Shown here: in pieces, positions 39,537 through 56,067 of the stretch | How the letters are laid out: each line of letters opens with the position of its first letter | Numbering within the stretch: the stretch's first letter is position 1 | Program-made: the position numbers and the translations under genes | NCBI GenBank assembly: GCA_965197475.1 | Contig: CBDANF010000003.1 | Coordinates: 832,001-896,000 of the forward strand | Reading direction: 5' to 3' | Length of the DNA stretch: 64,000 nucleotides | Source of the DNA: Candidatus Poribacteria bacterium | GTDB lineage: Bacteria; Poribacteria; WGA-4E; WGA-3G | The notes under the pieces: model-generated | The model's database searches: none | The model's input: the letters and a program-made list of their open reading frames with translations, nothing else | Told to the model about the DNA's origin: nothing

Positions 39537-39980
39537 TTAGCGGTCTCCTTCGTCCACAAGCGATTCTATCTGATCTACTGCTGTTTGCGCACCTTCCCGC
39601 ACAAGCGCGGAGGCATCATTCTGTGCCAGCTGCTTGAGTTTGTTGAGGCTAAGCTTAGCTTCCAATTTGCCGAGTGCAACCGCAATGAAATAACGAACAT
39701 CAGCATCCTCATCGTCAAGAGCGTCAAGTAGTGCTTCTGTATCAGAAAGAGAGGCAAGATGCCGTTCCACATCACCGATATTAATCAACGATTGTGCCGC
39801 TATACGTCGAGAGTGGATATCACCATAACGTAAGGACACAAGTAATTCGTCATTACCCGCGGAAATTGTCTTAAGAGTATCCCAATCACAATCCAAACAA
39901 AACCATGAATTTCCGCCTAACTGCTGGACGTTTGCATTGCCACACTTAGGGCATTCCCCAAATTCCTGTTGTCGATTCAT
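39537..39980 (-). CDS. Zn-ribbon plus HEAT-repeat protein
   Basis: CPKC...CLDC; LDDEDADVRYFIAVALG; ATGA overlap with the upstream gene. Confidence 0.75.
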   Translation of the reverse strand: MNRQQEFGECPKCGNANVQQLGGNSWFCLDCDWDTLKTISAGNDELLVSLRYGDIHSRRIAAQSLINIGDVERHLASLSDTEALLDALDDEDADVRYFIAVALGKLEAKLSLNKLKQLAQNDASALVREGAQTAVDQIESLVDEGDR

Positions 39981-40369
39981 GAGGGACCTATTGCCTCCAA
40001 TTCTGGTAAATCTCGCCAAATTTCTGGACCTTCTGGCTTGAAATTAATTGTTGCGATGAACTGCATGCCGTGATAGAAGTTGATTTTGAACTTGCCGCCG
40101 CCGAAATTCTGTTTGAGGTAATCCAAAGGTGCATCAATTAGCGGACCCATTTCATCTGCGTAATAGAAAACGAGCGGTTTGAACCGAACAGTGTTACCTA
40201 CAGGTTCTTGCACCAAAAGCTGCGCGGAAGTGGCAGGAAAGAGCACCTGAAAGGCATCCCATAGATCAGCAACAGTAGGGTTCGGTTTCCCGATTCGCTT
40301 TTTGAAATCGTTTTCAAGATATTCAGAGAACGTGTTAAAAACCCAGTCCATGATTTGTGTCCTTTTCAA
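39977..40369 (-). CDS. Hypothetical protein
   Basis: 130-aa ORF translationally coupled to the next gene. Confidence 0.65.
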   Translation of the reverse strand: MKRTQIMDWVFNTFSEYLENDFKKRIGKPNPTVADLWDAFQVLFPATSAQLLVQEPVGNTVRFKPLVFYYADEMGPLIDAPLDYLKQNFGGGKFKINFYHGMQFIATINFKPEGPEIWRDLPELEAIGPS

Positions 40370-41126: not shown

Positions 41127-41540
41127 TCAGAACGTGGCAGCTTTTTCAAAGAACTCAATATCCACGCGCTCAACTTGTGCGGAACGCGCATTCTCTGCCA
41201 CACGTTGAACCACCATCTCCCGCACAAACGGGATCGGAATCCGTTTAACCCGATGCACAACCTCTTCCGTACAAGGCACATTGGTGTTGTCAAGGAAAGG
41301 TCCATCCTGAGGGGCAACTTCAGCAGGATGATCACACGTCTCTGGCACAAGTTGCTGTAACCGCATAGAGACGTAATCGGTCACCCACTGTTGAAACTTT
41401 TCGGTGCTTTCAGATTCTGCAGCACTGACTTGTGGAGTCTGCTCCAACTTCTCATTAATACTGACAAGCAGATTTTCCAAACGTGCCAAACGGTCTTCAA
41501 CACTCGTGAGTCGTTCTTGAACGTTAATTTGGTCGCTCAT
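41127..41540 (-). CDS. Coiled-coil plus PCP_red-like domain protein
   Basis: C-terminal CTEEVVHRVKRIPIPFVREMVVQRVAENAR. Confidence 0.65.
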   Translation of the reverse strand: MSDQINVQERLTSVEDRLARLENLLVSINEKLEQTPQVSAAESESTEKFQQWVTDYVSMRLQQLVPETCDHPAEVAPQDGPFLDNTNVPCTEEVVHRVKRIPIPFVREMVVQRVAENARSAQVERVDIEFFEKAATF

Positions 41541-41549
41541 GTTTCCTCC

Positions 41550-42269
41550 TTAAATTGTCCAATACTTCCAGAGGTCTTCTGGAATTTCATATCTAATTTC
41601 TTCACGCCGTTTATGGTGATAGCGTGCAAATATGCCGACACGTGGGATGTCCTTGATATTACCAGAACCTGTATGGCACAGATATGCGTGCCATAGCACA
41701 ACATCTCCAGCAGACGCTATAAATTCCCGCGCTCCCTCTGGCGATGAATCTGAAAAGATATTCCAACTCCAACCCTCAATATCTGTAAAACTACCATCAA
41801 CTTGTTCAGGATATTTAAGGAAGTATTGATGTGTTGTACGGTGGCTCTTAGGCCAAAAGACAAAAGCCCCACCACCGGGTTCAACATCGTATAGATAGGT
41901 TGTTGCTCCCATCATAAATGGACTCCATCCGCCGGGACCGTAAGCATCAATGTGTCCACCACCCGGCATTGACCATTCCGCATCCGGATTAGGCCATTTC
42001 ACAAGCGGTGCTCCGCCTCCACCTGTAAACTGACCGCCACCGAGTTGCTCAATAATCGCTTGCATTGCAGACAATTGTCCGAAATTTGGGGAAAAACCGA
42101 AGTTTTCCACCACATATTTGTCGGGCCAGGTGTCTGGAGTCTCTAAACTGGAATTGAAATGCTTCCAAATCTGTTCCCGCCACCCATCAATTACATCTGT
42201 ACCGATCAAGTTTTCAAGAATAAGATACCCGTTTTCCTGAAACAATTTCACCTGTTTTGCTGTTAGCAT
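41550..42269 (-). CDS. PhyH-family 2OG-Fe(II) dioxygenase
   Basis: FQENGYL, HID, WPKSH, AGDVVLWH..L.H. Confidence 0.85.
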   Translation of the reverse strand: MLTAKQVKLFQENGYLILENLIGTDVIDGWREQIWKHFNSSLETPDTWPDKYVVENFGFSPNFGQLSAMQAIIEQLGGGQFTGGGGAPLVKWPNPDAEWSMPGGGHIDAYGPGGWSPFMMGATTYLYDVEPGGGAFVFWPKSHRTTHQYFLKYPEQVDGSFTDIEGWSWNIFSDSSPEGAREFIASAGDVVLWHAYLCHTGSGNIKDIPRVGIFARYHHKRREEIRYEIPEDLWKYWTI

Positions 42270-42320
42270 ACAAGTTTCCTCTATTGTTAAGGCATAAGAG
42301 TTTTGACCTTGCCTAAAATC

Positions 42321-43625
42321 CTAACGCCGCGGTCGGAAAGAGGGAATGCCTGTTTTATCAAATCGCTCTTTGACCGCTTTCATAAGTTCAGACGTTATTT
42401 CGCGATACCCGTGTTCGCGAGCATATTTTTCAACACTTTTGACAACCATGCCCCGTGCAAATGAGGGTACACGCCTTAACCTTTCTTCCGCCGCATCATT
42501 CCACTTTAAATCGTAGTCCGGTTCCGTTCCAAAGGCAGTCCGTTTCTCAAACTGAACAGGTTGTTGTCCCTGTTGCCCGGGTTGATATTCACAAGATTCA
42601 TCTGCAGCAAGGTAGTTGCCAGTCGTAGCATACGCACGTGCTCTACATCCGCCACACACCTCTCTGAATTCACACGCGCCACATTTACCTTGTAGCATAT
42701 CCCGATCTCGCAACTCATGAAAAGTTTCCGACTCATTCCACAGTTTGACAAAACTCTCATCTTTGAGATTGCCAACGCTGACAGGTAGATACGGACACGG
42801 TGTCAGTTCACCTTCAGGACTGATGCGGCAATAATAGATACCACACGGGCACGTGCCACTCGGATAACCTTGTAGGAACGCAGAATCGGACTGCTGTTCA
42901 TAGATAACGCGTTTGTAGTGAGGCGCGCATTTCGCCGCGATGAGCATCTTACCGCTATATTCTGCCTGCAGTTGGAACATCGTCTCAAGCATCTTCTCAT
43001 ATTGTGCAGGCGTAATGTCCATTACCGTTTTGCCTCTCCCCGTTCGCACGAGAAAATAGAGATTTAGCACTTTCGCACCCAATTGATAGGCAAATTCAAC
43101 AATCTCAGGGATTTCGTCATAATTCCACTGCGTCACAGAGGTTTGGACGAGGAAGTCAAGTTGTGCACGCTTGAGTGATTCAACGCCGTTCATTGTGGCT
43201 TTCCACGCGCCTTCCATGCCGCGAAACTGATCGTGATTCGATGGTTGAATAGAATCAATGCTCAACCCCGCGCCAGTAACGCCGTGCTGTTGCATCTTTT
43301 CAACCACCTCGTCGTTCAATAGGACACCGTTTGTTCCCATCACAACAAGAAATCCGGTATCGGAAGCGTATTTTGAAATCTCAAGAATATCCGGACGCAA
43401 CAAAGGTTCACCGCCCGTGAGGATAAGAAGGATATGCGGATTGATTTCAGCTATCTCATCAATGACACGAAAACACTCTGATTGGCTCAACTCCGCATCT
43501 CTAAGATAACCGTGTGGGAACTCGTCTGTGTCTACAAATCCCGCAGGAAGATAGCAGTGCGTACATTTCAGATTGCACAATCTGGTAATATTCCATGAGA
43601 CTGCCTGAACTTTTGTGTTTTCCAT
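42321..43625 (-). CDS. Radical SAM/SPASM protein (AhbC/AhbD/NirJ-like) with C-terminal PCP_red domain
   Basis: WNITRLCNLKCTHC, TGGEP, CAPHY, SPASM cysteines, GGCRARA; WNDAAEERLRRVPSFARGM. Confidence 0.85.
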   Translation of the reverse strand: MENTKVQAVSWNITRLCNLKCTHCYLPAGFVDTDEFPHGYLRDAELSQSECFRVIDEIAEINPHILLILTGGEPLLRPDILEISKYASDTGFLVVMGTNGVLLNDEVVEKMQQHGVTGAGLSIDSIQPSNHDQFRGMEGAWKATMNGVESLKRAQLDFLVQTSVTQWNYDEIPEIVEFAYQLGAKVLNLYFLVRTGRGKTVMDITPAQYEKMLETMFQLQAEYSGKMLIAAKCAPHYKRVIYEQQSDSAFLQGYPSGTCPCGIYYCRISPEGELTPCPYLPVSVGNLKDESFVKLWNESETFHELRDRDMLQGKCGACEFREVCGGCRARAYATTGNYLAADESCEYQPGQQGQQPVQFEKRTAFGTEPDYDLKWNDAAEERLRRVPSFARGMVVKSVEKYAREHGYREITSELMKAVKERFDKTGIPSFRPRR

Positions 43626-44084
43626 TTAATTTCTCAATAGCAACGCGAGCGCGAAAACAATTAATCCTGAAAAAAGTGTTAAATGTCCAAAAACATTGAT
43701 ATGACGGGGCACGGTAGTTTGACTATCGGGTTGTGCTGCCTCAAGGTGTCGCCGATAAAGTGAACTGTATAGTCCCCAAAAAAGTGCCATCAATCCAAAT
43801 GCAGCAAACTTTGCAGCAGAATATATCATATACTCCGATTTTAATTGCATATCGTTATTCCATGCAACAATAAAGATTACAATCCCGCCTGTAAGTAAAA
43901 GGACATTAATCATCACTTGCATCCAGTGGCGAAAGCGATTGTGTATTTCCAACAGGTCATGTGCTGGTAGGTTTTGCCGAACTATTGGCATTGCAATCAA
44001 GGTTGAAAATACAACCCCTCCGAACCAGATTATTGCTGCAATGAGATGAATACTTCGGATGAAAAGTTCTACGATATGGCGCAT
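43626..44084 (-). CDS. Four-TM CopD/DUF2269-like membrane protein
   Basis: IHLIAAIIWFGG motif. Confidence 0.6.
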   Translation of the reverse strand: MRHIVELFIRSIHLIAAIIWFGGVVFSTLIAMPIVRQNLPAHDLLEIHNRFRHWMQVMINVLLLTGGIVIFIVAWNNDMQLKSEYMIYSAAKFAAFGLMALFWGLYSSLYRRHLEAAQPDSQTTVPRHINVFGHLTLFSGLIVFALALLLRN

Positions 44085-44086
44085 TT

Positions 44087-44818
44087 CTAACTCTGCACTG
44101 CAATTGACGTTGGGGTTCGAGAATCAACAATCCGAAGCAAATGACTCGCGAACATAATGATTTCTACTGCTTCCTCCGCTGTAACAGAAACATTTCGATG
44201 GCTATGCGGATTTTTGTAAAGTCCGATTGCTCCTGCCAAAAGATGTGCTGTGGCTTCTCTTTCCGGTTTAGACTGATTTTGATCTGTTAATGGCCCGTTA
44301 TCAACATGGAAAGCTTTTCGCATCAAATCAACGCCATAATCTACTGCAGTGTAGCCACCAGCATTCCGAACAGCTATTTCCACTGTTTTAAATGCTTCAA
44401 ATATAGCAGTGTCGTACTTACCTCTCAGAAAGTTTGAATTGACATCTTCGGCTATGGAAGAGTGAAGCAACTGTTTAGGTAATAGATTCGCTTTACGATA
44501 GGCTTCTAAAGCATCTGCGCTTTTTACGCCTTCTCCTTTTCTCGTAATGGAAACCATATCAGGATAGAATCCTCGTGTAGGTACAATAAAACCTTCTCTT
44601 TCTAACCATGCCCATGCTTCCCTAAGTGCCATCATAATTCTATCTCGATACTCACCAGGATATTTTTCAACAGTACGTCGCGAAGTGAAATTCTGTAGAC
44701 TAAACTGGTCGTCTGATTCAGGAAGGGATTGGAAGTGCTGCAAAACAAGCCCTGCTAATTCTTCAACTTCAAGATTTAGCAGAGTTTCAGGATCTGAAAT
44801 TAAATCGTAAAAAAACAA
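44087..44818 (-). CDS. TIGR02391-family protein
   Basis: LH..I....F..G.Y..AIFEAFK.VE, GAIGLYKNPHSH. Confidence 0.8.
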   Translation of the reverse strand: MFFYDLISDPETLLNLEVEELAGLVLQHFQSLPESDDQFSLQNFTSRRTVEKYPGEYRDRIMMALREAWAWLEREGFIVPTRGFYPDMVSITRKGEGVKSADALEAYRKANLLPKQLLHSSIAEDVNSNFLRGKYDTAIFEAFKTVEIAVRNAGGYTAVDYGVDLMRKAFHVDNGPLTDQNQSKPEREATAHLLAGAIGLYKNPHSHRNVSVTAEEAVEIIMFASHLLRIVDSRTPTSIAVQS

Positions 44819-44829
44819 CTTTAGTTCTC

Positions 44830-46794
44830 CTAAAGAGATAAGTGATTCTTATCTGGTATCTGTTGCTGAGACAAATCCCATAGTAGTATTATTCCGTCCC
44901 TACATCCACTGGCGAGTATTTGACCATCAGGACTGAACGCAACATCCTGGACAATACCAGTATGCCCAATGAGCGTGGATTCGCATTGTCCTGTAACAAC
45001 ATCCCATAAACCCACATTTTTACTCCCACTCACGAGAGTGGCACCATCTGGACTGAAACTCACACTACTGACTCCGCATTCAAATCCTGTGAAAATAGTT
45101 TTGTTTGCTCCAGAAACACTATCCCATAACCGCACTGTGCGGTCATTTCCCCCACTAGCGATCATGTGACCATCAGGGCTAAAAGCAATACTCCAGACAC
45201 AACCTGTATGCCCAATGAGGGTAGTTTTATGTACTCCAGAAACACTATCCCATAACCGCACTGTCTGATCATCACTTACACTAGCGAGTATGCGGCCATC
45301 TGGACTAAAACTGACATCCGTAACTCCGTTTTCATGCCCTATAAGAGTAATTATTTCCTGTCTATTAAGAACATCCCATAATCGTACCGTGTTATCTGGA
45401 TAATTTCCCCCACTAGCAAGTATGCGGCCATCAGGACTGAATGCAACACTTGATACAATGCCTGAATGCCCCTTAAATAGTCCTCCAAATAAGGTTTTTT
45501 GTTGTTCTGTAACTGTATCCCATAACCGTACTGTGTGATCCGAACCCCCACTGGCAAGTGTGCGGCCATCAGGACTGAACGCAACACCATGAACACTGAC
45601 TGTATGTCCTATAAGTGTAGACATATGCTGTCCTGTAGATGTGTCCCACAATCTAATTGATTCGTCCCAATCCCCGCTGGCAAGTATGCGGCCATCAGGA
45701 CTGAATGCAACGCTATTAACACTGGGCGTATGGCCTGCAAATATAACTTTAAGTCTTCCACTACCAGCGTTCCAGATTCGTACTGTGCTATCTGTTCCCC
45801 CGCTAGCTATTGCTCGACCATCAGTCGTAAAGGTGACATCTGTAACAATGCCTGTATGTCCAGTGAGTGTTTTACACTTTTTGCCAGTGAAAACATTCCA
45901 TAGCCGAATTTCGCTAGCACTTGCAACTGCAAGTTTAGTACCATCAGCACTAATATCAAGACTTTCAACACCATGCGGATGTTCTATTTCAAGTGTAGTT
46001 TTGCGTTGTCCTGTGGTCACGTCCCACAGAAGCAACATATTTTTTAACTTTCTTTCCCAAATTTCAATTGGATCATGTGAAAAAAAAGTATTACTTCCAC
46101 TTGCAAGAGTTTTACAATCAGGACTAAAGGCTATGCTGCATATTGAACTCATATGTCCTACAAGTGTAGTTTTGGGTTTTCCTGTGGATGTCTCCCATAA
46201 TCGCACTGTTTTATCTGAACTTCCACTTGCAATGGTAGCACCGTCGGATGAAAATGCAACCGCAGAAACACTATCTGTATGTTCAGTGAGTGTAGTCTTT
46301 AGTTTTCCTGTAGATACTTCCCACAACCGTACCGTGTTATCCAAACTCCCACTAGCAAGAATACTACCGTCGGGTGAAAATGCAACCGCAGAAACACTAT
46401 CTGTATGTTCAGTGAGTGTAGTCTTTAGTTTTCCTGTAGATACTTCCCACAACCGTACCGTGTTATCCGAACCACCACTCACTAGAAAATTACCATCGGA
46501 ATTAAAGGCAACACTTAATACCTCTCCAGTGTGTCCAACTAATAAACTAAGCTCTCCACCGGTACGTGCGTCATACATCCAAATCCCAATTGCACTAGAG
46601 ACAGCGAAGCAAGTACTATCAGGTGAACAAGCAATATTACCAGTAATTTTCCCTTTACCGAGCCGTGCTTTGACACCTTGAGGTAAATACCACTGCGGAG
46701 AATCTTGGGATAAAGTAGTTTGTAACCCGAAGAAAGAAGTGATGGATCGGTTAAATCGAGAAGAAAAAGTTGGTTTCATTGAGTAATCGTCCAT
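44830..46794 (-). CDS. WD40-repeat protein
   Basis: About 14 GH..V..VAFSPDG..LASG..D.TVRLWD repeats; LPQGVKARLGKG N-terminus. Confidence 0.95.
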   Translation of the reverse strand: MDDYSMKPTFSSRFNRSITSFFGLQTTLSQDSPQWYLPQGVKARLGKGKITGNIACSPDSTCFAVSSAIGIWMYDARTGGELSLLVGHTGEVLSVAFNSDGNFLVSGGSDNTVRLWEVSTGKLKTTLTEHTDSVSAVAFSPDGSILASGSLDNTVRLWEVSTGKLKTTLTEHTDSVSAVAFSSDGATIASGSSDKTVRLWETSTGKPKTTLVGHMSSICSIAFSPDCKTLASGSNTFFSHDPIEIWERKLKNMLLLWDVTTGQRKTTLEIEHPHGVESLDISADGTKLAVASASEIRLWNVFTGKKCKTLTGHTGIVTDVTFTTDGRAIASGGTDSTVRIWNAGSGRLKVIFAGHTPSVNSVAFSPDGRILASGDWDESIRLWDTSTGQHMSTLIGHTVSVHGVAFSPDGRTLASGGSDHTVRLWDTVTEQQKTLFGGLFKGHSGIVSSVAFSPDGRILASGGNYPDNTVRLWDVLNRQEIITLIGHENGVTDVSFSPDGRILASVSDDQTVRLWDSVSGVHKTTLIGHTGCVWSIAFSPDGHMIASGGNDRTVRLWDSVSGANKTIFTGFECGVSSVSFSPDGATLVSGSKNVGLWDVVTGQCESTLIGHTGIVQDVAFSPDGQILASGCRDGIILLWDLSQQQIPDKNHLSL

Positions 46795-46924
46795 GTTTAT
46801 TCAGACAGGATTTAAGAATGTTCGGAATCGTCTAATTCTGACTCAAAGTGTTTGTCTAAAGAATTTGACAAAAAGTAGTATAAATATATTCGTTCTTTTC
46901 AATACATAACGTAATCATGTGAAA

Positions 46925-47238
46925 TTATACGTCCTTACATCGTTCATAAAAGTTCACGCCAACTCGCTCAATTTGTGCAACCATATCAGGATTTCCTATC
47001 TTGCTGAAAACAGAGAGGTCAATCGTATAAGGTAAAAGCAAATCGTCAAGATCGATGTCAATTTTAGAAAGCACGTTATGTGTTACCCCCTCACCGCAAA
47101 GGGTTAGGTCAAGTCCGAACCGTTTCGATATGTGCCTGTGGCGCGTGAACCGTACAAAATCGCCCTCTCAATCTGCGGATACTGCTTGAAAACCTCGTGT
47201 ATTTTTTGGAGAGTTCGGTCTGATAAGCCGTATTTCAT
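46925..47238 (-). pseudogene. Minimal nucleotidyltransferase (MNT antitoxin-like) with 1-bp deletion near 47110
   Basis: MKYGLS...LYGSRATGTYRNGSD|DLTL...LDDLLLPYTIDL; not in the ORF track. Confidence 0.8.
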
Positions 47239-47300
47239 AGCGACTCTTCCTGTTTTAGGTGTTCTATTTTTGTCAACAACGTCTCAAATTCTGAGTAATA

Positions 47301-47422
47301 CAGGACTTACGCATTCCCCCTTGATAAGGGGGGTTAGGGGGTTAAAAAGGCGTTATTTTAGCTATTTAACCCCCTAAATCCCCCTTATCAGTGGGACTTT
47401 AAGAAAAAATGCGTAAGTCCTG
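47301..47422. mobile_element. MITE with CAGGACTTACGCA ends
   Basis: Perfect 13-bp TIR, TAATA on both sides; internal cccccttgataagggggg palindrome also near 27947-27965. Confidence 0.8.
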
Positions 47423-47520
47423 TAATATATGTTGAGAATTGCCGAAACAACCTCTTCGGCGGTATCCTCATTGTGCGCGCTCTTTTTTGGTGGTTCTAAG
47501 AAATTGCGTTGATTAGGATA

Positions 47521-48264
47521 TTAAGTGCGTGCTTGCAAACGTGCGATCTCTTCTCGGAGTTGTGCGACTTCTGCTTCCGCTTCCTGTCGTGCGGAGGCTT
47601 CCCGTTCTGCGCGTTCCTCGGCAGTATCCGCACGTATTGTCTCAGCTTCTGCACGTGTTCGCACCCACTCACTCGCAACCGGATCATAGATACCTATTTC
47701 CTGATGCCTTATGCGGAAATCTAAACCCAAGGACGATGAACGCAAACCACCATTCTCGCCAGGCGGAACCGGCACGTAGATGCCATCAACTAACTCAAAA
47801 CCCATTAGCGGTGATGGCAAATACAGACCCTCGGCATCATACAAGAAATAGTCTTGTATCTTGAGTGACGCGTAGATATCCATCTTGTCAGTTAAGTCAT
47901 TCTGATATGTGTTTTTGCTGCTGAACTCCATTACGAATTCTGGCACTTTACCCTCTTCCCACACCAAGTATGTCCGCCTTGCCTTCATTCCTATTCCGAA
48001 AGAGACAAGAACATCTGGAGATATAGACTTATTAGGTGAACCTTCCACATAATACATCAGAATATCACCAGAGATATAGACAGACGGGTTATGTGAGAAA
48101 TGTGCCTCAAGTGCTTCTAATGTCCAAAACAACTGATGCCTATGCAGATCGCTTGCTGCCATCGGTTTTCCATCCTCTTCAGGATAAAGTGTCAATGCAT
48201 CTGTGGGGACATAAGAGACCTGTTCCTTTTCTGCGTTAGTTGCCATAATGTTCTCCTTTACCAA
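47521..48264 (-). CDS. Uma2-family endonuclease with coiled-coil tail
   Basis: YPEEDGKPMA, SPDVLV, EGKVPEFVMEFSS, YFLYD. Confidence 0.88.
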   Translation of the reverse strand: MVKENIMATNAEKEQVSYVPTDALTLYPEEDGKPMAASDLHRHQLFWTLEALEAHFSHNPSVYISGDILMYYVEGSPNKSISPDVLVSFGIGMKARRTYLVWEEGKVPEFVMEFSSKNTYQNDLTDKMDIYASLKIQDYFLYDAEGLYLPSPLMGFELVDGIYVPVPPGENGGLRSSSLGLDFRIRHQEIGIYDPVASEWVRTRAEAETIRADTAEERAEREASARQEAEAEVAQLREEIARLQART

Positions 48265-48359
48265 AAGATGCGTGAAAACAACGGTTAAGATTTTTTGTGC
48301 TGTCTATATTGTGTCTTAATTATAGCCGAAAACTGAGAGGGTATCAAGCATTTAAGGTT

Positions 48360-48869
48360 TTAGAACTGCGCGGGAAAGTTTCCGCGTGCGGCATCCATCA
48401 CTTCGCCAGTAATTTCGGTATGCCCGTTATCTTTAGCAAAACTTTCAATTCCCATCTTTGCCATCGGACGGACAAAACTTGGGATGCGTTCTAAACGCTC
48501 GAGTGCTTCAGGTGTCCATGTGAGACCATCAGGTTCAGGTTCAGATTTTTCCTCAAAAGCATCCGAGATAACTGAGGTGAAGGGACATTTGCCTCCCTCA
48601 GCAGTTTCTGATGGCATGTTCGGCATTGAATCCTGCTTTGCAGTCTCTAACTGCGAACGAACCATCTGCATCGGTTGTGCCGCTTCGCTACTACCGCCGA
48701 GTTGAAGGTCCAAGGATTTTAGCATCTGTGTTTCCGATGGATTGAGAAACATGGCAATTTCTGTAAAGCAGTCGGGACATTCAAAAACAGCCGTGACAGA
48801 ACCCTGTTCAGGATGGGTTATGTCTTTAAATTTCATTGCTGTGTCGCAGTCTATACATAAGAATTTCAT
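48360..48869 (-). CDS. Zn-ribbon plus PCP_red domain protein
   Basis: MKFLCIDC...CPDC; CPF; WTPEALERLERIPSFVRPMAK. Confidence 0.8.
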   Translation of the reverse strand: MKFLCIDCDTAMKFKDITHPEQGSVTAVFECPDCFTEIAMFLNPSETQMLKSLDLQLGGSSEAAQPMQMVRSQLETAKQDSMPNMPSETAEGGKCPFTSVISDAFEEKSEPEPDGLTWTPEALERLERIPSFVRPMAKMGIESFAKDNGHTEITGEVMDAARGNFPAQF

Positions 48870-48908
48870 CGTTTAATCTCCGTATTTTAGCGTGGAAAGT
48901 GACCTATG

Positions 48909-49790
48909 TTATGTATTAAAGAAATCTTGAATCTTTTGCGCTACCTCTATAATTGTTCTGCTTGCGGGGGTATCGGGGTGTTCATTAACATAAGGTGTGC
49001 CGTTGTCGCTACAACTTGATAATTTTGGATCGAAGGGGATTTTGCCGAGCGTTGTTAACTGAAACAAATTATCAGGGGTTTCCTCAGTAGAAAAAAGTGG
49101 TTCGTATTCACCGCAGTGTTTACACACATAGAACGACATATTTTCAACAACGCCTATAATCGGTACCTTGAGAATGTCTCTCGCCATCGTAATAGATTTT
49201 TTGACAATCAGGTGTGAGACTTCGGAGGGGATTGTTACGACGACCACGCCACCAAGGTTTGGGATAAGTTCAGCCACATTCGGCAGACGATCAGAACCTG
49301 GTGGCAGATCAAGCAGAAGATAATCCAATTCTCCCCATTCGGTATCACCGATGAACTCCCGCAGTGCGCCTACCTCCATTGTGGAACGCCATGTGAAAGC
49401 ATCCTTTTGGGTGTGTGCATTCCACAGCACCGGTGCGTCATCTTCAGACAGGAGCAGATCCATTGAGATAATCTTTACACCAAGGAAACTGATAGCCGGT
49501 TTAACACCTGATGATGTGTATTCAAGCGTTGCGTTGCGAACCCCCATCATCTTAGCAATCGTTGGACCGTTGATGTCTGCATCAACAACTCCGACAGCAT
49601 AACCTGCCAACGTTAGTGCGGTAGCGAGGTTTGCAGTAATAGCACTTTTACCGACACCGCCTTTTCCGCTCATTATCACGACTGTCTGTTTTACCGAAGC
49701 GAGGCGTTTGCTAATGCGGTTCGCTTGTGCTGTGACTTGCCCTATAATGTTGGAACCGGCATCATCCGGGAGTTCCTTGTAACTTTTCAC
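48909..49790 (-). CDS. Mrp/NBP35 (ApbC) family ATPase
   Basis: SGKGGVGKS, DADINGP, WGELDYLLLDLPPG, VENMS...CKHC. Confidence 0.9.
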   Translation of the reverse strand: MKSYKELPDDAGSNIIGQVTAQANRISKRLASVKQTVVIMSGKGGVGKSAITANLATALTLAGYAVGVVDADINGPTIAKMMGVRNATLEYTSSGVKPAISFLGVKIISMDLLLSEDDAPVLWNAHTQKDAFTWRSTMEVGALREFIGDTEWGELDYLLLDLPPGSDRLPNVAELIPNLGGVVVVTIPSEVSHLIVKKSITMARDILKVPIIGVVENMSFYVCKHCGEYEPLFSTEETPDNLFQLTTLGKIPFDPKLSSCSDNGTPYVNEHPDTPASRTIIEVAQKIQDFFNT

Positions 49791-51061
49791 TTTTTCTGGC
49801 TGATGGCGTATAAAGCATCATAACTGCGCAAATAGAGAGTACCATCTGCGATTACCGGCGATGCAGCAACGGTTTCGCCAATTGAATTGGTAGCCACGAT
49901 TTCAAATTCTCGCCCTGCCTTAACAACATTGACGACACCGTCCCGTGCTGTTAAATAGATATAGCCATTTGCATAGACAGGCGAAGAGCGATGCCGTTGC
50001 CGGTGCGTTCGGTGCTCATAAAGTTGTTCTCCTGTTTTGGCATCAAGGCAGATAAGAACGCCGTTTTCTCTACATAGATAGACGAGACCGTCGTGAATAA
50101 GTGGAGATGGCACGTCTGGTGTGCCTTGTGGGAGTTTCCAGATTTGCCACTTGGAATCTGTAATATTGCCTGTTCCCGATGGGTCTAAACCCAGAACAGG
50201 CCCGTTTTTAGCAGAGGGGACGACAATAAGACCTTCCGTTGCTACAGGAGAGGCTACAAGCCGGAACGATGGGTTATACCTTTCTCGCGAATTCAAACCG
50301 CCACATCGCCAAATTTCCCTGCCATCTTCAAGATTATGTGCCGTGACATAGTCTGCGCCATGCACAACAAGGAATTCACGTTGCGTATCACGGTAAAGAA
50401 TTGGAGAAGTATAGGCGTGTTCACATTCTCTCCTTGCATCACTTTTCCTGTCATGCTTCCAAACTTCTTCGCCAGTCATCTTGTCAAGTGCAAGGACTAA
50501 CCATGCGTTGCTGTGAATAAGTTGAATGTATAATTTATCTTTGTCCAGCAGCGGTGTCATTGACATAAGAAACTCGAGTCTAAACTTACCGTAACGTTCC
50601 TCCAGATTTGTCTGCCAAACCGGGTTTCCTTCAAAATCGTAACAAGCGAGATCGCCCGTTCCGAGAAACGCCCAGACATGTTCACCATCAGTTGTTGGTG
50701 AGGGTGCAGCGAAGTTGACTTCATCGCCGTGATCAGAACGGTTACCTTGTGCTAAAGAGCGTTTCCACAGTTCCTCACCTTCTGTGGTGACACACATTAG
50801 AACAAGTTCTCTTCCGTCAGCGGATGTCAGGAAAATCTTATCTCCCCAGACAATAGGTGTAGAGGCACCCTCGCCCGGTAGTGGTAGCCGCCATCGCACA
50901 TTTTCGGTTTGGCTCCACTGGATTGGCACATCAGCTTCTTGGCTTATGCCGTCGTTGTTTGGTCCCCGCCACTGGTGCCAGTTTTCGGCGGAACCGTTGC
51001 TAATTAGAATAAGAAACGCAAGTAGAAAAATTAACGCGCGACTGACAATGTGTTTTTGCAT
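49787..51061 (-). CDS. Secreted PQQ-like beta-propeller protein
   Basis: ENWHQWRGP, STPIV, ASPV repeats. Confidence 0.85.
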   Translation of the reverse strand: MQKHIVSRALIFLLAFLILISNGSAENWHQWRGPNNDGISQEADVPIQWSQTENVRWRLPLPGEGASTPIVWGDKIFLTSADGRELVLMCVTTEGEELWKRSLAQGNRSDHGDEVNFAAPSPTTDGEHVWAFLGTGDLACYDFEGNPVWQTNLEERYGKFRLEFLMSMTPLLDKDKLYIQLIHSNAWLVLALDKMTGEEVWKHDRKSDARRECEHAYTSPILYRDTQREFLVVHGADYVTAHNLEDGREIWRCGGLNSRERYNPSFRLVASPVATEGLIVVPSAKNGPVLGLDPSGTGNITDSKWQIWKLPQGTPDVPSPLIHDGLVYLCRENGVLICLDAKTGEQLYEHRTHRQRHRSSPVYANGYIYLTARDGVVNVVKAGREFEIVATNSIGETVAASPVIADGTLYLRSYDALYAISQKK

Positions 51062-51558
51062 TATGGGTCTCCATTTTCATTGAACCTTGTGGGTTCCGTT
51101 GTGTAGTGTGTACCTCTTGCATGGCGTGTCAACAATTTATGCATTGTGAAGTTCAACGATTCTCATCTGTCCATAAGCCCCGATCAGGACCGTTCCATTG
51201 GTACGGAACTATTTTTGATAAAGTTCCCACATTATACTCTGGGAACTTACACCCTGTCTCTATTACATAACCTTCATTTGTGAATATGGGGAACTCTAAT
51301 TTGGTGAGAGAAGTAACAGGTTCGATTTCCAGCCATACGTCAAGATCACCGATTACTGTTTTGTAGAAAAAGTCGGCAGAATGGCTTTCATGTTTCAGAA
51401 TCATGATTACGCCAGATTGTTTAACTTCTCCGTTAATAGATTTTTAGCGCGGGGTTTACCCATTTTCGCGGGATGCCGATAAAAGTAACAATTTCATTAT
51501 CTCTACCGTCATCAGTTTGTGTTTCTGTCACCGAAGGTATTCCTTCATGATGTTATAT

Positions 51559-51717
51559 TATAGTAGATTTTAGAATTACTTGGACATTGTTATAGGTCCA
51601 GTTGGGAAACAGTTCCTACCGCATATTTTGTAGCACAAACTTTTAGTTTGTGTCGTCCTTGCGCAAACTGAAAGTGGACGCTACAGCAGTGTCCAGATAA
51701 TTACAGATTTTACTATA
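51559..51717. mobile_element. MITE-C (IS630-type ends) with REP cargo
   Basis: Reverse complement of 8467-8625; TATA at both ends; one end matches the IS630 end at 12158 at 15 of 16 positions. Confidence 0.85.
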
Positions 51718-51753
51718 AGATAGCATATTCTACACGAATATGCTATCTTTTTT
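51717..51753. terminator. 14-bp perfect hairpin downstream of the USP gene
   Basis: aagatagcatattc-tacac-gaatatgctatctt; the T-run is on the + strand. Confidence 0.4.
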
Positions 51754-51821
51754 AATACAGTTAACACTAAAACCTGATGCGAAGAACTTAGAGGAAGATA
51801 CTTGCCACACCATAACCCAGC

Positions 51822-53753
51822 CTATTTTGGATCTGCTGGTTGTTTACCTTGATAATACTCACCCAACACCTCATTGGCAAGACTTCTGCCATCCTCAATG
51901 ACACGTGCAGCGAAATCAAGTGTGACTTGCGAAATACGAGCTTCTTGTGCGCGCTGTTCAATACGGGTTTGAGTGATATTTCGCATAAAACCGGCAGGGA
52001 CTAAATTCAACCGTTCTATAGCATCTTCTGTCCATTCAAGGACACTTTCAATGTCAAAAGTCCTTTCAGTGTTTTGAGATTCAGTTTGCGCTTGCATGGC
52101 TCTGAGTTCGGGAGCATCTTCACGGACTGCTGCTGCTTCACCCATGCTGTCATCAATGATCTGCGTGGCGAAATCATTTGTGATAGTACCGATCTTTTGG
52201 GAACGTGCGGATTTTTCGATTCGCGCTTTCACATTGCGCCGCATATAGCCGCGTGGCACGGTGCGCAGTGCTTTCTTTGCTTGGTCTGACCATTGCAATC
52301 GGACACCATCAAATGTCTCCTCTTCTGCAGTACCGCCTTCGTCAATAGCGATGTGCTCAATGGAATCTTTGTCAACCATCTGGAAACGTTCTGGCGGCGA
52401 ACTACAAACAGGACATTGGACGGGTTGTTGGTCATGTGCTGCGTAGCCACATTCGCCACAGATATAGGTTTGCACGGCACCCGCTTCCAAAACCTTCTGC
52501 TCAGCCATCTCTTTAGCGACTCGTGTTAGCTTTTCAGAAGCGCGTTGTGGCATAATCGCTTCCATCGCCTTGTCAATCACACTTTCGGTTATAACAGAAT
52601 GTCCACGCTCAATAGCAAACCGATGCACTGCGGTCTTCGCGATGCCACGCACTAGCGGGGGTGCTTTCTCCATCCGATCCATTGCCTCTTGTGTCCAAAC
52701 GAGGGTTTCTTCCGCTTTTACATCAATTTGGGGAAAATAACGTTGGCTTGACAGCAGCACGTTACAGGGAGCAAGACGTAAGAGGTTTTCAGCTGTACTG
52801 CCGATGTCCGAATCTTGTTCATTATGGACACCAATTCTGCCTAAAACGAGGAGCCACGGGTTAGTTTTACGGGTGTATTGTAGTATTTTTTCATAAGCTT
52901 TTCCATCGAGGAGTGTGATTTTTAGTTGATAGTCGTGTTCTTCTTTTGCTATAGAACGGGCAACTTCAAGGTGCGATTGATATATTTTTGCAAGCCCGGT
53001 ATCTATTACCTCTTCATGCAGCTGCTCCTGCTCTTTAAATCTGAATGTTCTCGCGGCTCGTTCAGTTAGCACATTTACAACGGAATTGAAAACGATATAG
53101 TGTAGATAGGGATCATATACGCCTACGGCTTCCACCTGTCTGTTGAACTTTTGCCCAAGGTAGATAGCGGTTTTCAACCCAGAAAAAGATTCAGGACTCC
53201 CGTCAATTCCGACGAGGATATTTCCGCTTTGTTCTTCAATAGGTTCAAGGTTTCGGACAACAAGCGTATCGGTAGTGATACGGCGGACAACACGTTCACA
53301 TACGCCACCGATTAGGCTATCCTTAACAGCACCCATACCGAGTGCGCCCATAATAACCAGATCGTAATCGCTTTCTTGAATGTCCTCAACCAGTTTGATG
53401 TAGTGCTTGCCTTCAGGCATTTTCGGTTCAAATGGAATGTCATGTTTTTCGCACTTCAGTTTCATTACCTCAAGATAGGAATCTGAAATAAGTTGGAGTC
53501 CCATGGTAATGAGTGTGTCATGGATGCGGCGCTGCTTTTCGAGTTCAACCTCATCCTGATACTCCTCCGGCAAGGTATACTCCATCTGTTTGAAGCGTAC
53601 ATCGTGCATTTTTGCAGCGTAGACGTGTGAACCAACCAGCTGCGAATTAAATTTTTTTGCGAATTCAACAGCTAAGTCTATACTGGCATCCGAATAGTCA
53701 GAATTATCTACCGGCACATAAATTTTTTTCATAATCTTTTTCTCACTTGTCAT
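51822..53753 (-). CDS. Tandem USP plus three PCP_red domains plus rubredoxin-like domain
   Basis: IYVPVDNS / ILVGIDGS USP starts; CGECGY...CPVC; three W(T/S)..A..R...P repeats. Confidence 0.85.
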   Translation of the reverse strand: MTSEKKIMKKIYVPVDNSDYSDASIDLAVEFAKKFNSQLVGSHVYAAKMHDVRFKQMEYTLPEEYQDEVELEKQRRIHDTLITMGLQLISDSYLEVMKLKCEKHDIPFEPKMPEGKHYIKLVEDIQESDYDLVIMGALGMGAVKDSLIGGVCERVVRRITTDTLVVRNLEPIEEQSGNILVGIDGSPESFSGLKTAIYLGQKFNRQVEAVGVYDPYLHYIVFNSVVNVLTERAARTFRFKEQEQLHEEVIDTGLAKIYQSHLEVARSIAKEEHDYQLKITLLDGKAYEKILQYTRKTNPWLLVLGRIGVHNEQDSDIGSTAENLLRLAPCNVLLSSQRYFPQIDVKAEETLVWTQEAMDRMEKAPPLVRGIAKTAVHRFAIERGHSVITESVIDKAMEAIMPQRASEKLTRVAKEMAEQKVLEAGAVQTYICGECGYAAHDQQPVQCPVCSSPPERFQMVDKDSIEHIAIDEGGTAEEETFDGVRLQWSDQAKKALRTVPRGYMRRNVKARIEKSARSQKIGTITNDFATQIIDDSMGEAAAVREDAPELRAMQAQTESQNTERTFDIESVLEWTEDAIERLNLVPAGFMRNITQTRIEQRAQEARISQVTLDFAARVIEDGRSLANEVLGEYYQGKQPADPK

Positions 53754-53754: not shown

Positions 53755-53885
53755 TATAGTATAATCTAAAAGTATGTGAACATTCCCATGGTAGGTACGT
53801 TTCCTAACCGCACCATTTACTCAATCCCGGTACGGTTAGGAAACCGCACCTACCACAGTGTATAATAATTATGGATTTTACTATA
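53755..53885. mobile_element. IS630-type MITE containing an inverted REP pair
   Basis: tatagtataatc...gattttactata; ggtaggtacgtttcctaaccgcacc / ggtacggttaggaaaccgcacctacc. Confidence 0.7.
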
Positions 53886-53888: not shown

Positions 53889-54102
53889 ACCCAAGTTGCC
53901 ACCTTTGCCACCTATACCATGAAAAACGTCATCTACACAGAATTTTCAGATAAGTACTGCTCACAGTTACTGGACATACCACCCTGCTGGAGTGGAAGAA
54001 AGGACTAGCTTTTTTCTATAAACATATCGCTCCGCTGGAGCGAAAGATTAAACACCCTAACCATAAGGGAATTGATCGATTTTCAAAGGTAGCAACTTGG
54101 GT
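53889..54102. mobile_element. MITE-A (IS982-like ACCC ends)
   Basis: TIR acccaagttgccacct / aggtagcaacttgggt; 7-bp TSD tataaaa. Confidence 0.8.
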
Positions 54103-54118: not shown

Positions 54119-54391
54119 TCACTCTGTTTCCGTATTATCAAAAGGCTTGTAGCGAGCACCAATGATACCTCCAAGGATGTGTGCTATCAGGACTGCTGGC
54201 CATAAGTACACCATAGCTGTTTGCCATTGCCAGTGGAGAATAAAACGCCGCACAACAATATTAAGCACAATCGGAATATATAAACATCTGCTCCAAGGAC
54301 GACTGAATTTTTTATACCGTACACGAAAAAATCCAAACGGGAAATGAACCACAAATGCTGCGATGGAAATTAAGAGGTTCAGATCCTTCAT
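54119..54391 (-). CDS. Small membrane protein
   Basis: PFGFFR..KKFSRPW...IP; coupled to the SCO gene. Confidence 0.7.
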   Translation of the reverse strand: MKDLNLLISIAAFVVHFPFGFFRVRYKKFSRPWSRCLYIPIVLNIVVRRFILHWQWQTAMVYLWPAVLIAHILGGIIGARYKPFDNTETE

Positions 54392-55023
54392 TTTCCGAGA
54401 AGTGTTTTGACATCCTTACGTAAACGTGTCATCATTGGTTTGCTGCGACTATCGTAATAGCCGTGAATGTTTCCATCTGGTGCAACGAGAACAAACCTTG
54501 TGCTATGGGGAAACGCACCTTCGTGATGTGCAGCAGCTAATTTAAAACCTTTGTTAGCCAATTGGTAAATTTGTTCCTTTTCACCCGTTAGGAAATGCCA
54601 TCGTTGTTCGTCTGCACCATATCGCCCCGCATAACGCGAGAGAACTTCTGACGTATCTCGCTCCGGATCCACTGTGAAAGAAACAAAATAGACAGGTTCT
54701 GAGTCAAATTCCGATTGCAGGTTTACCATTTCCTGCGTCATCACAGGACAAATCGTAGGACAGTGGGTGAAAATAAAATCTGCAACCCAGATCTTTCCCA
54801 CCATATCAGATAAGCCTAACGGTTGTCCTTGCTGGTTCATCAGACTAAAATCGGGAACCTTCGCTGCAACAACATCAGTCCCAGAATCCGGTTTTTTATT
54901 GAAGACTGACCATAAATTGAGAACAGCAATACCGATTATGATGACACCCAACACGACCCACAACAGTGTGATCTTTTCAAGTCTGCGTTCGTCTTGATCA
55001 AGGTTGTCAGTCTGATTCTCCAT
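54388..55023 (-). CDS. SCO1/SenC copper chaperone
   Basis: FTHCPTICP, VDPERDT, HSTRFVLV. Confidence 0.93.
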   Translation of the reverse strand: MENQTDNLDQDERRLEKITLLWVVLGVIIIGIAVLNLWSVFNKKPDSGTDVVAAKVPDFSLMNQQGQPLGLSDMVGKIWVADFIFTHCPTICPVMTQEMVNLQSEFDSEPVYFVSFTVDPERDTSEVLSRYAGRYGADEQRWHFLTGEKEQIYQLANKGFKLAAAHHEGAFPHSTRFVLVAPDGNIHGYYDSRSKPMMTRLRKDVKTLLGK

Positions 55024-55068
55024 AATTGCCGCGCCTACAGCGGACAGGATTAAGTAACTGTCCGTACC

Positions 55069-55410
55069 TTAGTGAGAGTTCGTATCAACAACTTCTGCCG
55101 GTTTTTCAACGCCTGCGTGCCGTGTTTTTGAAGTTAGATCGGGCATCAGCATAATGACAAGGAAAACACAGATGAGAAAAGGTGTAATAACGATAACCGC
55201 CAAAGTGCGCTTTTCAAACTTTAGATGCATGAAATAAGTAGCAACTAAGAAAGCCTTACTGCATGCCAAACCGATAAGTAGTATGACTTTGAGGGCGGTA
55301 GGGAAATCCGGGATAACTATGAGAACCTCAACGACTGTCAACCCAGCAAGCCACCAAAAAATAGTCATGTACTTCGGATGCTCATTATGTCCGTTCTGTG
55401 CCATATTCAT
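55069..55410 (-). CDS. Cytochrome c oxidase subunit IV
   Basis: LTVVEV, KAFLVATYFMHLKFE. Confidence 0.88.
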   Translation of the reverse strand: MNMAQNGHNEHPKYMTIFWWLAGLTVVEVLIVIPDFPTALKVILLIGLACSKAFLVATYFMHLKFEKRTLAVIVITPFLICVFLVIMLMPDLTSKTRHAGVEKPAEVVDTNSH

Positions 55411-55416
55411 GTCCTC

Positions 55417-56067
55417 CTATATTAAATAGATAAAGGTGAAAACCATAATCCAAATAAGGTCAACGAAGTGCCAATAAAGCCCAACAATTTCCACTTCATG
55501 GTTAAACTCGGCAGTATAACGCCCCGACCATCCGTTTCTCAATATAACGATAAGATAAATCACGCCACCGGTTACGTGTAGCCCGTGGAAACCTGTGATA
55601 GCGTAGAAAGTAGGACCAAAAAGCGTAGAGCCGCTAATTACCGCATCAGATAGACCATGTTCAGGAATTCCAGTAAGCGTCAATCCGTGTTTAATTAAAT
55701 GATACCATTCATACGCCTGCAATCCGAGGAAGATAATACCACCTAAAATCGTTAAACCCAGAAAATCACACATTCTACCGACGTTGCCTTTTTGAATTGA
55801 CTCTAACGCTTTAACCATTGTGACGCTACTACAAATCAAGAGGAACGTCATAAAAGCAGTCAAGGAAATACCGAGTATTTCGTTTGGTGGGACCCATCCG
55901 ATTACACCTGCACCTATTCGGATTGCTGCATAAGCCGCGAGCAATGCGCCAAATGACATTGTATCGCCAATCAGGAAAACCCACATGCCGAGTTTTCCAA
56001 GGCTATCAGGCGTAAGCGATGGTTCGTATATGTCTTCAGTATGTTCTAAAGTGGTAGCTTGTTCCAC
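55417..56067 (-). CDS. Cytochrome c oxidase subunit III
   Basis: KLGMWVFL, TGFHGLHV, GLYWHFVDLIW. Confidence 0.92.
   Translation of the reverse strand: MEQATTLEHTEDIYEPSLTPDSLGKLGMWVFLIGDTMSFGALLAAYAAIRIGAGVIGWVPPNEILGISLTAFMTFLLICSSVTMVKALESIQKGNVGRMCDFLGLTILGGIIFLGLQAYEWYHLIKHGLTLTGIPEHGLSDAVISGSTLFGPTFYAITGFHGLHVTGGVIYLIVILRNGWSGRYTAEFNHEVEIVGLYWHFVDLIWIMVFTFIYLI

Follow-up and report, generated by a model that had tools for sequence, protein, structure and literature searches.

A gene cluster of Candidatus Poribacteria that joins an AhbD/NirJ2-like radical SAM protein to PCP_red-domain partners, with counterparts in other phyla

AhbD, the radical S-adenosylmethionine (SAM) heme b synthase, converts coproheme to heme b, and enzymes of the AhbD/NirJ2 type remodel the propionate side chains of iron tetrapyrroles. 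DPOR comprises a nitrogenase-like BchN/BchB core and a BchL reductase, and its BchB/ChlB protein carries the PCP_red domain at the C-terminus. According to the available part of one review, AhbD is also present in coproporphyrin-pathway organisms without other AHB genes (PMC13564367). We analyzed a 64,000-nucleotide stretch from the genome of a sponge-associated Candidatus Poribacteria bacterium (GenBank assembly GCA_965197475.1, contig CBDANF010000003.1, positions 832,001 to 896,000; hereafter the window), in which PCP_red domains recur on four proteins encoded together, one of them a radical SAM protein similar to AhbD and NirJ2.

The cluster joins two submodules, each of which recurs in other phyla. 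Submodule A is a divergent paralogue of the ATPase Mrp followed by a zinc-ribbon protein with PCP_red (Zn_PCP). Submodule B is made up of a protein with Usp and PCP_red domains (USP_PCP), the radical SAM protein (rSAM_PCP) and a CopD-like membrane protein. The fourth PCP_red protein is cc_PCP. We regard the system as real and conserved, and the best reading of it is a coproheme-to-heme-b-like function, with Mrp and Zn_PCP as a pair that may be added to it or not. That the region is the Poribacteria form of a widespread, uncharacterized AhbD-like radical SAM system of the heme type, with PCP_red-linked helper proteins, is a reading we hold with middling confidence. The components are listed here, with genome-scan scores on the lines for single PCP_red domains (PF08369):

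51822-53753, minus strand: USP_PCP (643 aa, submodule B), with tandem Usp domains, PCP_red, a rubredoxin-like CxxC...CxxC knuckle and two further PCP_red
52566-52697, minus strand: PCP_red copy 1 of USP_PCP, 47.5 bits
52170-52292, minus strand: PCP_red copy 2 of USP_PCP, 35.5 bits
51912-52034, minus strand: PCP_red copy 3 of USP_PCP, 33.8 bits
48909-49790, minus strand: Mrp-type P-loop ATPase (293 aa, submodule A), PF10609 at 242.8 bits
48360-48869, minus strand: Zn_PCP (169 aa, submodule A), with a four-cysteine zinc ribbon, a flexible linker and a C-terminal PCP_red (residues 118-162, 63.1 bits)
48579-48587, minus strand: Cys-Pro-Phe motif of Zn_PCP (residues 95-97), similar to heme-regulatory motifs of the Cys-Pro kind
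48384-48518, minus strand: PCP_red of Zn_PCP, 65.6 bits, three helices at pLDDT ~88
43626-44084, minus strand: four-helix membrane protein of the CopD/DUF4149/HemJ superfamily (152 aa, submodule B), abutting the start of rSAM_PCP
42321-43625, minus strand: rSAM_PCP (434 aa, submodule B), an AhbD/NirJ2-like radical SAM/SPASM protein with PCP_red at residues 375-419 (56.1 bits)
42369-42503, minus strand: PCP_red of rSAM_PCP, 60.3 bits
41127-41540, minus strand: cc_PCP (137 aa), with an N-terminal coiled coil predicted by reading the sequence and a divergent PCP_red
41139-41267, minus strand: PCP_red of cc_PCP, the divergent sixth copy, 23.6 bits, below cut-off

The initial annotation had recognized a recurring motif as PCP_red, and this identification was borne out. 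Pfam places the family on three of the proteins above its gathering score of 32.5 bits, and in the genome scan each of their five copies exceeds that score singly; once converted to the window, the domain coordinates lie within ~15 nt of those annotated. The copy of cc_PCP (residues 93-134) reaches 22.1 bits when Pfam is run on the protein. It was recovered by hhalign, with a profile of 21 cc_PCP orthologues compared with a profile of the five clear copies, as their homologue over 46 columns (residues 88-134; probability 90.4%, E 1.4e-6), and residues 79-137 of cc_PCP are nearly invariant in 21 orthologues. Across the six copies only a P, an R and an A are invariant. The whole-genome scan of the 5.70-Mb assembly returned no PCP_red matches beyond these six, so that chance clustering is excluded, and a scan of related genomes rules it out as well.

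Folds were compared for the Zn_PCP copy. Its AlphaFold2 model has C-terminal helices at residues 120-128, 134-147 and 155-162 (pLDDT ~88), and this three-helix domain matches two PCP_red domains with structures of their own, 2KRU (Z 9.1) and 2L09 (Z 7.3), and residues 479-528 of ChlB in chain D of 2YNM (Z 7.3, rmsd 1.0 Å). The window domains belong to the same Pfam family as the domain of BchB/ChlB, and the Zn_PCP copy has its three-helix fold. Pfam detected neither a nitrogenase-like core nor BchN or BchL with the PCP_red proteins of the window; the nitrogenase-component domain is absent from all four of them, in a Pfam scan that took in these proteins and not the whole window for chlorophyll genes. 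Matches of window proteins to BchB models are limited to the last 55-67 residues of the models, and Fer4_NifH gives 17 bits with the window Mrp, below its cut-off. Unlike in BchB, PCP_red is attached here to Usp, rubredoxin-like, zinc-ribbon, coiled-coil and radical SAM modules. We thus rejected a DPOR-like or nitrogenase-like reductase, as there is no BchN/BchB core.

The similarity of rSAM_PCP to heme-type enzymes carries our reading of the locus. The protein matches the Pfam families Radical_SAM (84.1 bits) and SPASM (32 bits), and its translation contains the cluster motif C17-x3-C21-x2-C24. Over its full length it scores 328.9 bits with the AhbD model TIGR04545 and 309.3 bits with the NirJ2 model TIGR04055, both with cut-offs of 500 bits, followed by TIGR04053 (278 bits, below cut-off), NirJ (183 bits) and peptide maturase models (at most 133 bits). 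With AhbD and NirJ2 it shares the radical SAM core with SPASM, the CxxxCxxC motif, similarity along the full length and an occurrence in genomes with a coproheme-producing route. It differs from canonical AhbD in carrying one or three PCP_red domains, in forming a separate score class and in travelling with USP_PCP and the CopD-like protein.

The score classes were evident in 61 Nitrospirota genomes, 34 of them PCP_red-positive and 27 negative. Canonical AhbD proteins score 398-533 bits, are encoded in frames of 353-422 aa that leave no room for PCP_red, and are present in 21 of the 27 negative genomes. A second, AhbD-like class scores 297-344 bits; it occurs in 17 of the 34 positive genomes and in none of the 27 negative ones, and in every full-length case PCP_red is in frame with the radical SAM core.

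The genomic setting of the enzyme is consistent with a role in heme synthesis. In the window genome, a ferrochelatase gene is adjacent to HemY/CgoX, a HemN-like gene scores 188 bits (cut-off 325), a ChdC-like protein scores 43 and 38.5 bits on two HemQ/ChdC models (cut-offs 235 and 253), and neither HemF nor AhbC was found. Three Nitrospira genomes encode ferrochelatase, no AhbC, no ChdC above cut-off and, as their only AhbD-like gene, the fused one. In a Brocadiales genome (G042), AhbC is bona fide at 735 bits and ferrochelatase was not detected. The step common to these heme backgrounds is the conversion of coproheme to heme b. Together with the AhbD/NirJ2 similarity, this gene context makes the heme link put forward in the initial annotation plausible.

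The CopD-like protein is of a kind with HemJ, CopD and DUF4149 proteins, with which it shares a length of ~150 aa and four predicted helices, the first of them bearing an H...W-x-G motif. The invariant His and W-x-G motif were seen in 15 Poribacteria and 14 Nitrospirota sequences, and we take the His to resemble the heme-binding His of HemJ. Its family assignment is loose: the protein passes the CopD cut-off (34.0 against 32.1 bits), falls short of UPF0093 (PF03653; 20 against 34.2 bits) and of the NCBIfam CopD equivalog (32.5 against 195 bits), and matches DUF4149 weakly. In contrast to HemJ and CopD, the window-type protein always adjoins an AhbD-like radical SAM gene.

We next consider how the two submodules are distributed. 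The co-occurrence of these genes in other genomes, which had been suggested as a check by gene neighborhoods, held across Poribacteria and Nitrospirota loci. Among 41 related genomes, 36 contain PCP_red, with all 24, 6 and 5 genomes of three families (f1, f2 and f3) positive and the five of a sister family (f4) negative; 33 of the 36 have six matches, grouped on one contig. In Poribacteria, 67 loci span 15 kb or more, and their genes run in the order sco, s90, USP_PCP, (s83), PQQ, Mrp, Zn_PCP, where PQQ is a β-propeller gene and s90 and s83 are small open reading frames (ORFs) described below. Mrp and PQQ are present in 67/67 of these loci, Mrp always as the gene next upstream of Zn_PCP, and USP_PCP and SCO in 65/67. 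A block of CopD-like, rSAM_PCP, PhyH and cc_PCP genes follows within 10 kb downstream in 31 of the 62 loci with sufficient sequence.

A search with the USP_PCP alignment returned 581 genomic stretches, the best 80 of which were nearly all from Nitrospirota, with one from Nitrospinia and one from Woeseiaceae. In the 53 loci of at least 15 kb among these best 80, rSAM_PCP (~45% identical) comes directly after USP_PCP in 52, and a DUF4149/CopD-like gene is next after the radical SAM gene in all 53, so that submodule B is retained with its order reversed relative to Poribacteria. The CopD-like homologue of Nitrospira matches window positions 43707-44048 (E 1e-7). No Mrp gene was found within 10 kb of USP_PCP or rSAM_PCP in any of the 53 loci. 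Submodule A was traced through Zn_PCP homologues, which have two to three PCP_red copies and were retrieved in 512 stretches. Of the Nitrospirota/Nitrospinota loci that reach 15 kb, all 54 have an Mrp 40-44% identical to that of the window immediately upstream of Zn_PCP, and the overall count is 76 of 80; in the four misses Zn_PCP is at most ~360 nt from the start of the fetched locus and the upstream gene is beyond reach.

The submodules are separable. In Nitrospira sp. NFB02 the ranges of A and B lie ~100-120 kb apart, and in some Nitrospirales ~10-14 kb. Full-length Zn_PCP is encoded in nine of the 61 Nitrospirota genomes, eight of which also have the fused radical SAM gene; the 17 genomes with the fused gene comprise eight with Zn_PCP, eight without and one with a fragment only. 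In Nitrospirota, B therefore occurs without A, and A rarely without B. Radical SAM homologues of Brocadiales (49% identity; one source labels them ‘nirJ 3’) themselves bear three PCP_red domains. The two loci examined show no Mrp, USP or zinc-ribbon neighbors, and the conserved partners there are only a histidine kinase and a response regulator. We conclude that Mrp and Zn_PCP are an obligate pair that accompanies the radical SAM module, which can stand alone.

Beyond these loci, a profile of the six copies retrieved 1,781 cluster representatives (50% identity, E ≤1e-3) among 1.84 billion. Within the top 150, 59 representatives are at least 377 aa long: 40 are Usp fusions, seven contain radical SAM and/or SPASM, one contains Haem_oxygenas_2, and the remaining 11 have PCP_red without other partner, one of them also with a rubredoxin-like part. 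PCP_red copies number up to 5-6 per protein among the representatives. P0146, a representative of 463 aa, combines a rubredoxin-like knuckle, three PCP_red and a Haem_oxygenas_2/TENA-PQQC-like domain. One Nitrospira genome (G041) has 12 PCP_red domains over five proteins, including a 333-aa protein (L276:8604-9602) made of four PCP_red alone, which is encoded ~14 kb from the Mrp-Zn_PCP pair and has no oxidase or heme neighbors.

The Mrp of the window is distinct from the housekeeping protein. It shares the deviant Walker A (GKGGVGKS) and the CxxC pair (C223/C226), both invariant in 67 orthologues, with the iron-sulfur carriers of the Mrp/ApbC/NBP35 group, which includes MrpORP; a point of difference is that its 293-aa ORF has no N-terminal extension. 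It passes PF10609 and fails the cut-offs of ApbC (169.9 against 348 bits) and MrpORP (240.5 against 450 bits). A better-scoring Mrp is encoded on another contig of the same genome (PF10609 349 bits, ApbC 299.9 bits), which makes the window copy a second, divergent Mrp, and one paired with Zn_PCP. The Zn_PCP-paired Mrp class of Nitrospirota scores 241-245 bits on PF10609 and the window copy 236.9 bits in the genome scan. This low-scoring class was found, alongside paralogues of ~350 and ~300 bits, in three of four Zn_PCP-positive genomes checked and in none of five Zn_PCP-negative ones (four Nitrospirota with fused radical SAM genes and Brocadiales G042), which have housekeeping-type Mrp only or none at the threshold used. 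Homologues of the window Mrp returned by a protein search were all from Poribacteria and at least 79% identical. The Mrp-Zn_PCP pair of Nitrospira sp. NFB02 (L245:1533-8945, with the genes before it) follows genes for Rrf2, a sulfite reductase fused to TusA, CysH (PAPS reductase) and CysN/C, an operon that ties the pair to sulfur assimilation in this organism.

Sixty-six orthologues of Zn_PCP, with three phylum labels, all retain C5, C8, C31, C34, G93, C95, P96 and F97. The first four are the zinc-ribbon cysteines, and the last four belong to a G-x-C-P-F box (residues 93-97; K-C-P-F at 94-97 here) that lies in a low-confidence linker of the AlphaFold2 model (pLDDT ~44-49). Cys-Pro motifs are described, in the part of a published account available to us, as frequent transient heme-binding sites in loops, and Zn_PCP has the features given in that definition, namely Cys-Pro with a hydrophobic residue in a flexible loop (PMC10377097). 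Of the 438 PCP_red domains found in 150 representatives, 21 come after a (G/K/S)CPF box. Of 44 CP-hydrophobic motifs outside CxxC, 23 lie in the 35-residue windows upstream of PCP_red, where 10.5 are expected.

Several observations weigh against the AhbD-like reading. The score of rSAM_PCP is under the AhbD cut-off (329 against 500 bits) and nearly equal on NirJ2. Canonical-type and fused AhbD coexist in Brocadiales G042 (495 and 334 bits), in a Nitrospinia genome (G043; 511 and 341 bits) and, among Nitrospirota, in G046, G077 and G052. This coexistence makes the fused AhbD a paralogue, possibly with another substrate or role. The window genome encodes a Chlor_dismutase-family protein (60.6 bits, Pfam) that could be a divergent coproheme decarboxylase. 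This genome is a metagenome-assembled one (92.7% completeness, 7% contamination), so that a gene not found in it is weak evidence. As to the link to oxidases, tblastn found no aa3-operon or sco genes in any of the 53 submodule B and 54 submodule A loci, Pfam scans of two Nitrospirota loci also found no oxidase genes, and the sister family f4 has COX1 in 5/5 genomes and PCP_red in 0/5. Finally, the roles proposed for PCP_red, USP, the CopD-like protein and Mrp derive from domain content and linkage.

The family f4 also bears on the suggestion of the initial annotation that the PCP_red network serves oxidase cofactor maturation. Since all five genomes have COX1 without PCP_red, the module is not generally needed for the maturation of heme-copper oxidases, and the suggestion does not stand as a general requirement; an AhbD-like gene is absent from four of the five, and the sole one is of the canonical type. 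PCP_red proteins do adjoin two oxidase types, aa3 in Poribacteria (SCO in 65/67 loci) and a bd-like enzyme in Nitrospira (one genome). The latter genome is that of Nitrospira sp. NFB02, in which successive genes of one orientation encode a HEAT-repeat protein, an O-methyltransferase, DUF420, a further PCP_red protein (166 aa, two copies), a 363-aa unknown and a cytochrome bd subunit I-like protein. HEAT-repeat proteins are encoded near PCP_red genes in both phyla, possibly by coincidence: at 39537-40019 in the window (HEAT_2, 34.8 bits), and near the bd-like oxidase in Nitrospira, where the 464-aa counterpart (L277:11227-12618) also matches PBS-lyase HEAT repeats.

Other explanations were weighed as well. 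PCP_red might, as in the initial annotation, be a docking tag for a SIMIBI ATPase, by which all PCP_red proteins dock on the dedicated Mrp dimer, as BchB would on BchL, with Mrp supplying [4Fe-4S] clusters or, BchL-like, ATP-driven electrons; we consider this rather unlikely. The obligate pairing of a dedicated Mrp class with Zn_PCP (67/67 and 54/54 loci), its presence in 3/4 Zn_PCP-positive and 0/5 Zn_PCP-negative genomes checked, the invariant Walker A and cluster-bridging CxxC motifs and the several [4Fe-4S] clusters that a radical SAM enzyme with SPASM needs all argue for it. Among the DPOR entries that hold the domain, only the L-protein complex 2YNM is among the structural matches listed, and PCP_red may be ordered only in that complex. 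In the cryo-EM states, according to the accessible part of one report, BchB is the sole contact of BchL, with no residues given (PMC12022308). No Mrp lies within 10 kb of the USP_PCP and rSAM_PCP genes, however, in any of the 53 Nitrospirota loci or in the two Brocadiales loci examined; 8 of the 17 genomes with fused radical SAM genes are without Zn_PCP, those checked having housekeeping-type Mrp or none; up to 5-6 PCP_red copies per protein are hard to fit on one ATPase dimer; and a PCP_red-BchL contact was not found documented in the parts of the literature available. Docking of every PCP_red copy on Mrp would not fit how widely USP_PCP and rSAM_PCP occur in the absence of that Mrp, and the docking model survives, only partly supported, when narrowed to Mrp with Zn_PCP, where the genetic tie is strong. 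A related proposal, which we think distinctly improbable, is that the dedicated Mrp, instead of carrying iron-sulfur clusters, is a BchL/NifH-like, ATP-driven donor of low-potential electrons or a cluster-repair machine, recruited through PCP_red to a heme-making radical SAM enzyme.

PCP_red could instead itself be a tetrapyrrole-handling module that, with the Cys-Pro box, transiently holds coproheme or heme, multi-copy proteins being heme buffers or relays among the radical SAM enzyme, the CopD/HemJ-like protein and the oxidases. The domain is otherwise found in a tetrapyrrole enzyme, BchB of DPOR; the CPF box is invariant in Zn_PCP and its kind is enriched upstream of PCP_red, as counted above; P0146 fuses three PCP_red to Haem_oxygenas_2; and PCP_red proteins are neighbors of heme-containing oxidases of two types. 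Non-heme di-iron enzymes also belong to the Haem_oxygenas_2 family, though, 417 of the 438 PCP_red copies are without a CP box, and the invariant P, R and A of the six window copies cannot ligate metal. In BchB, moreover, the Pchlide lid is a helix at ~398-420 and not the terminal PCP_red, according to the available portions of two structural reports (PMC12022308, PMC4071322), and we judge the tetrapyrrole-handling proposal unlikely. Very unlikely, in our view, is that rSAM_PCP is a peptide or protein maturase without a link to heme, for which PCP_red would recognize the substrate and the PCP_red proteins would be substrates or scaffolds. SPASM enzymes are often maturases of ribosomally synthesized and post-translationally modified peptides, 78 NCBIfam radical SAM families matched rSAM_PCP, and the small ORF s83 is conserved in 49/67 Poribacteria loci. 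Yet the best peptide-maturase model reaches 133 bits against 329 for AhbD, 309 for NirJ2 and 183 for NirJ, no small ORF is conserved beside the module in one Nitrospira locus (L165), and the genes around it, for a CopD/HemJ-like protein, oxidases and heme A/O synthases, have to do with tetrapyrroles.

Under the AhbD-like reading, rSAM_PCP would perform an oxidative decarboxylation like that of AhbD, on coproheme or on a closely similar substrate of the heme type. PCP_red, with its 45 residues in three helices, would be a shared binding module that holds the enzyme and its helpers in one assembly, and the USP/rubredoxin protein may be a nucleotide-sensing or electron-relay partner of the enzyme. 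The CopD-like protein might accept heme or pass it on at the membrane and so serve, among others, terminal oxidases. We speculate that the Mrp/Zn_PCP add-on loads or repairs the [4Fe-4S] clusters of the radical SAM enzyme, or uses its invariant Cys-Pro motif to shuttle heme.

Within these proteins, Pfam scored Usp at 116.9 bits and PCP_red at 97.4 bits, summed over three stretches, on USP_PCP, and RUBY_RBDX at 22.1 bits, under its cut-off of 26.5; the USP_PCP family shows 37-49% identity among 19 cluster representatives. The remaining features of the region are as follows:

54388-63498, minus strand: sco (54388-55023; SCO1-SenC, 106 bits) and the oxidase operon of the aa3 type, which includes ctaA and cyoE
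54027-54043, minus strand: terminator-like hairpin from a consensus scan, located after the cox-sco-s90 operon and before USP_PCP
49787-51061, minus strand: PQQ_2/BamB-like β-propeller (PQQ_2, 86.8 bits), with an N-terminus that reads like a signal peptide
47521-48264, minus strand: Uma2 (Pfam)
44830-46794, minus strand: WD40, a label read from GH...WD repeats
44087-44818, minus strand: Hypoth_Ymh (Pfam)
41550-42269, minus strand: PhyH-type Fe(II)/2-oxoglutarate oxygenase-like protein (PhyH, 36.2 bits), between rSAM_PCP and cc_PCP in Poribacteria

As first annotated, the PCP_red genes share their orientation with mrp, the CopD-like gene, sco, cox, ctaA and cyoE, all genes at 38.4-63.5 kb being on the minus strand. 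Among these named neighbors mrp, the CopD-like gene and sco were scanned with Pfam, and cox1-4, ctaA and cyoE were named by reading translations. A 365-nt spacer with the terminator-like hairpin at 54027-54043 parts the PCP_red cluster from the sco/aa3 operon, which suggests that the PCP_red genes are transcription units separate from the oxidase operon. Just upstream of the USP_PCP start codon, a 16-nt inverted repeat (53799-53844; 94% complementary, 14-nt spacer) could be an operator or RNA hairpin, and ~70 nt past the stop codon a hairpin with a perfect stem of 14 bp and a 5-nt loop (51717-51749) suggests that USP_PCP is its own transcription unit. On the oxidase side, s90 (54119-54391) is a hydrophobic ORF of 90 aa that overlaps the sco stop codon, is present in 65/67 Poribacteria loci and may encode a small oxidase-assembly membrane protein. 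Between two cox3-like genes of the operon lies a 289-aa ORF with a DPPY motif (56237-57106; 21/67 loci) that, named from this motif alone, looks like a DNA methyltransferase. The putative 83-aa ORF s83 is at 51153-51404, between USP_PCP and the PQQ propeller.

None of the other genes interspersed with the submodules was retained as a core member. The end of the PQQ propeller gene overlaps the mrp start by 4 nt and the gene is universal in the Poribacteria loci; it does not lie upstream of Mrp in Nitrospira sp. NFB02, and we rejected it as lineage-specific. The interval 44087-48264 is a variable insertion that splits submodules A and B and is outside the conserved set; its genes Uma2, WD40 and Ymh occur in 24, 4 and 5 of the 67 loci and were rejected as variable or lineage-specific. 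Across Poribacteria loci, Zn_PCP and the CopD-like gene are 109 to 9002 nt apart, and this interval is an insertion hotspot that in other Poribacteria holds no genes or other sets, including a methyltransferase. Its 726-nt Uma2-WD40 spacer contains a G-rich, imperfect 35-nt inverted repeat (47315-47396; 74% complementary) that looks like a REP-type element. The PhyH gene is present in 32/67 Poribacteria loci and travels with the radical SAM gene; it too was rejected as core, the Nitrospira 2-oxoglutarate oxygenase being non-homologous and found in 20/53 loci only.

A full-text search of the literature returned no description of the module, and supplementary files may bear on the point. If the AhbD-like reading is true, the system would be a missing piece of heme biosynthesis in Nitrospira, Nitrospina and anammox bacteria, which act in the nitrogen cycle, and in major sponge symbionts. 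Several genomes have ferrochelatase and no recognizable ChdC or canonical AhbD, and in these the fused enzyme is the obvious candidate for the last step. It would also provide the first role of PCP_red outside chlorophyll synthesis and a new, obligately paired Mrp subfamily. Were the dedicated Mrp in fact an electron donor or repair machine for the enzyme, PCP_red would be an ancient recognition module common to DPOR and a heme system, and aerobes such as Nitrospira and Poribacteria could run an oxygen-sensitive AhbD-type heme synthase. The finding would thus raise the testable question of how an oxygen-sensitive radical SAM enzyme keeps working in aerobes.

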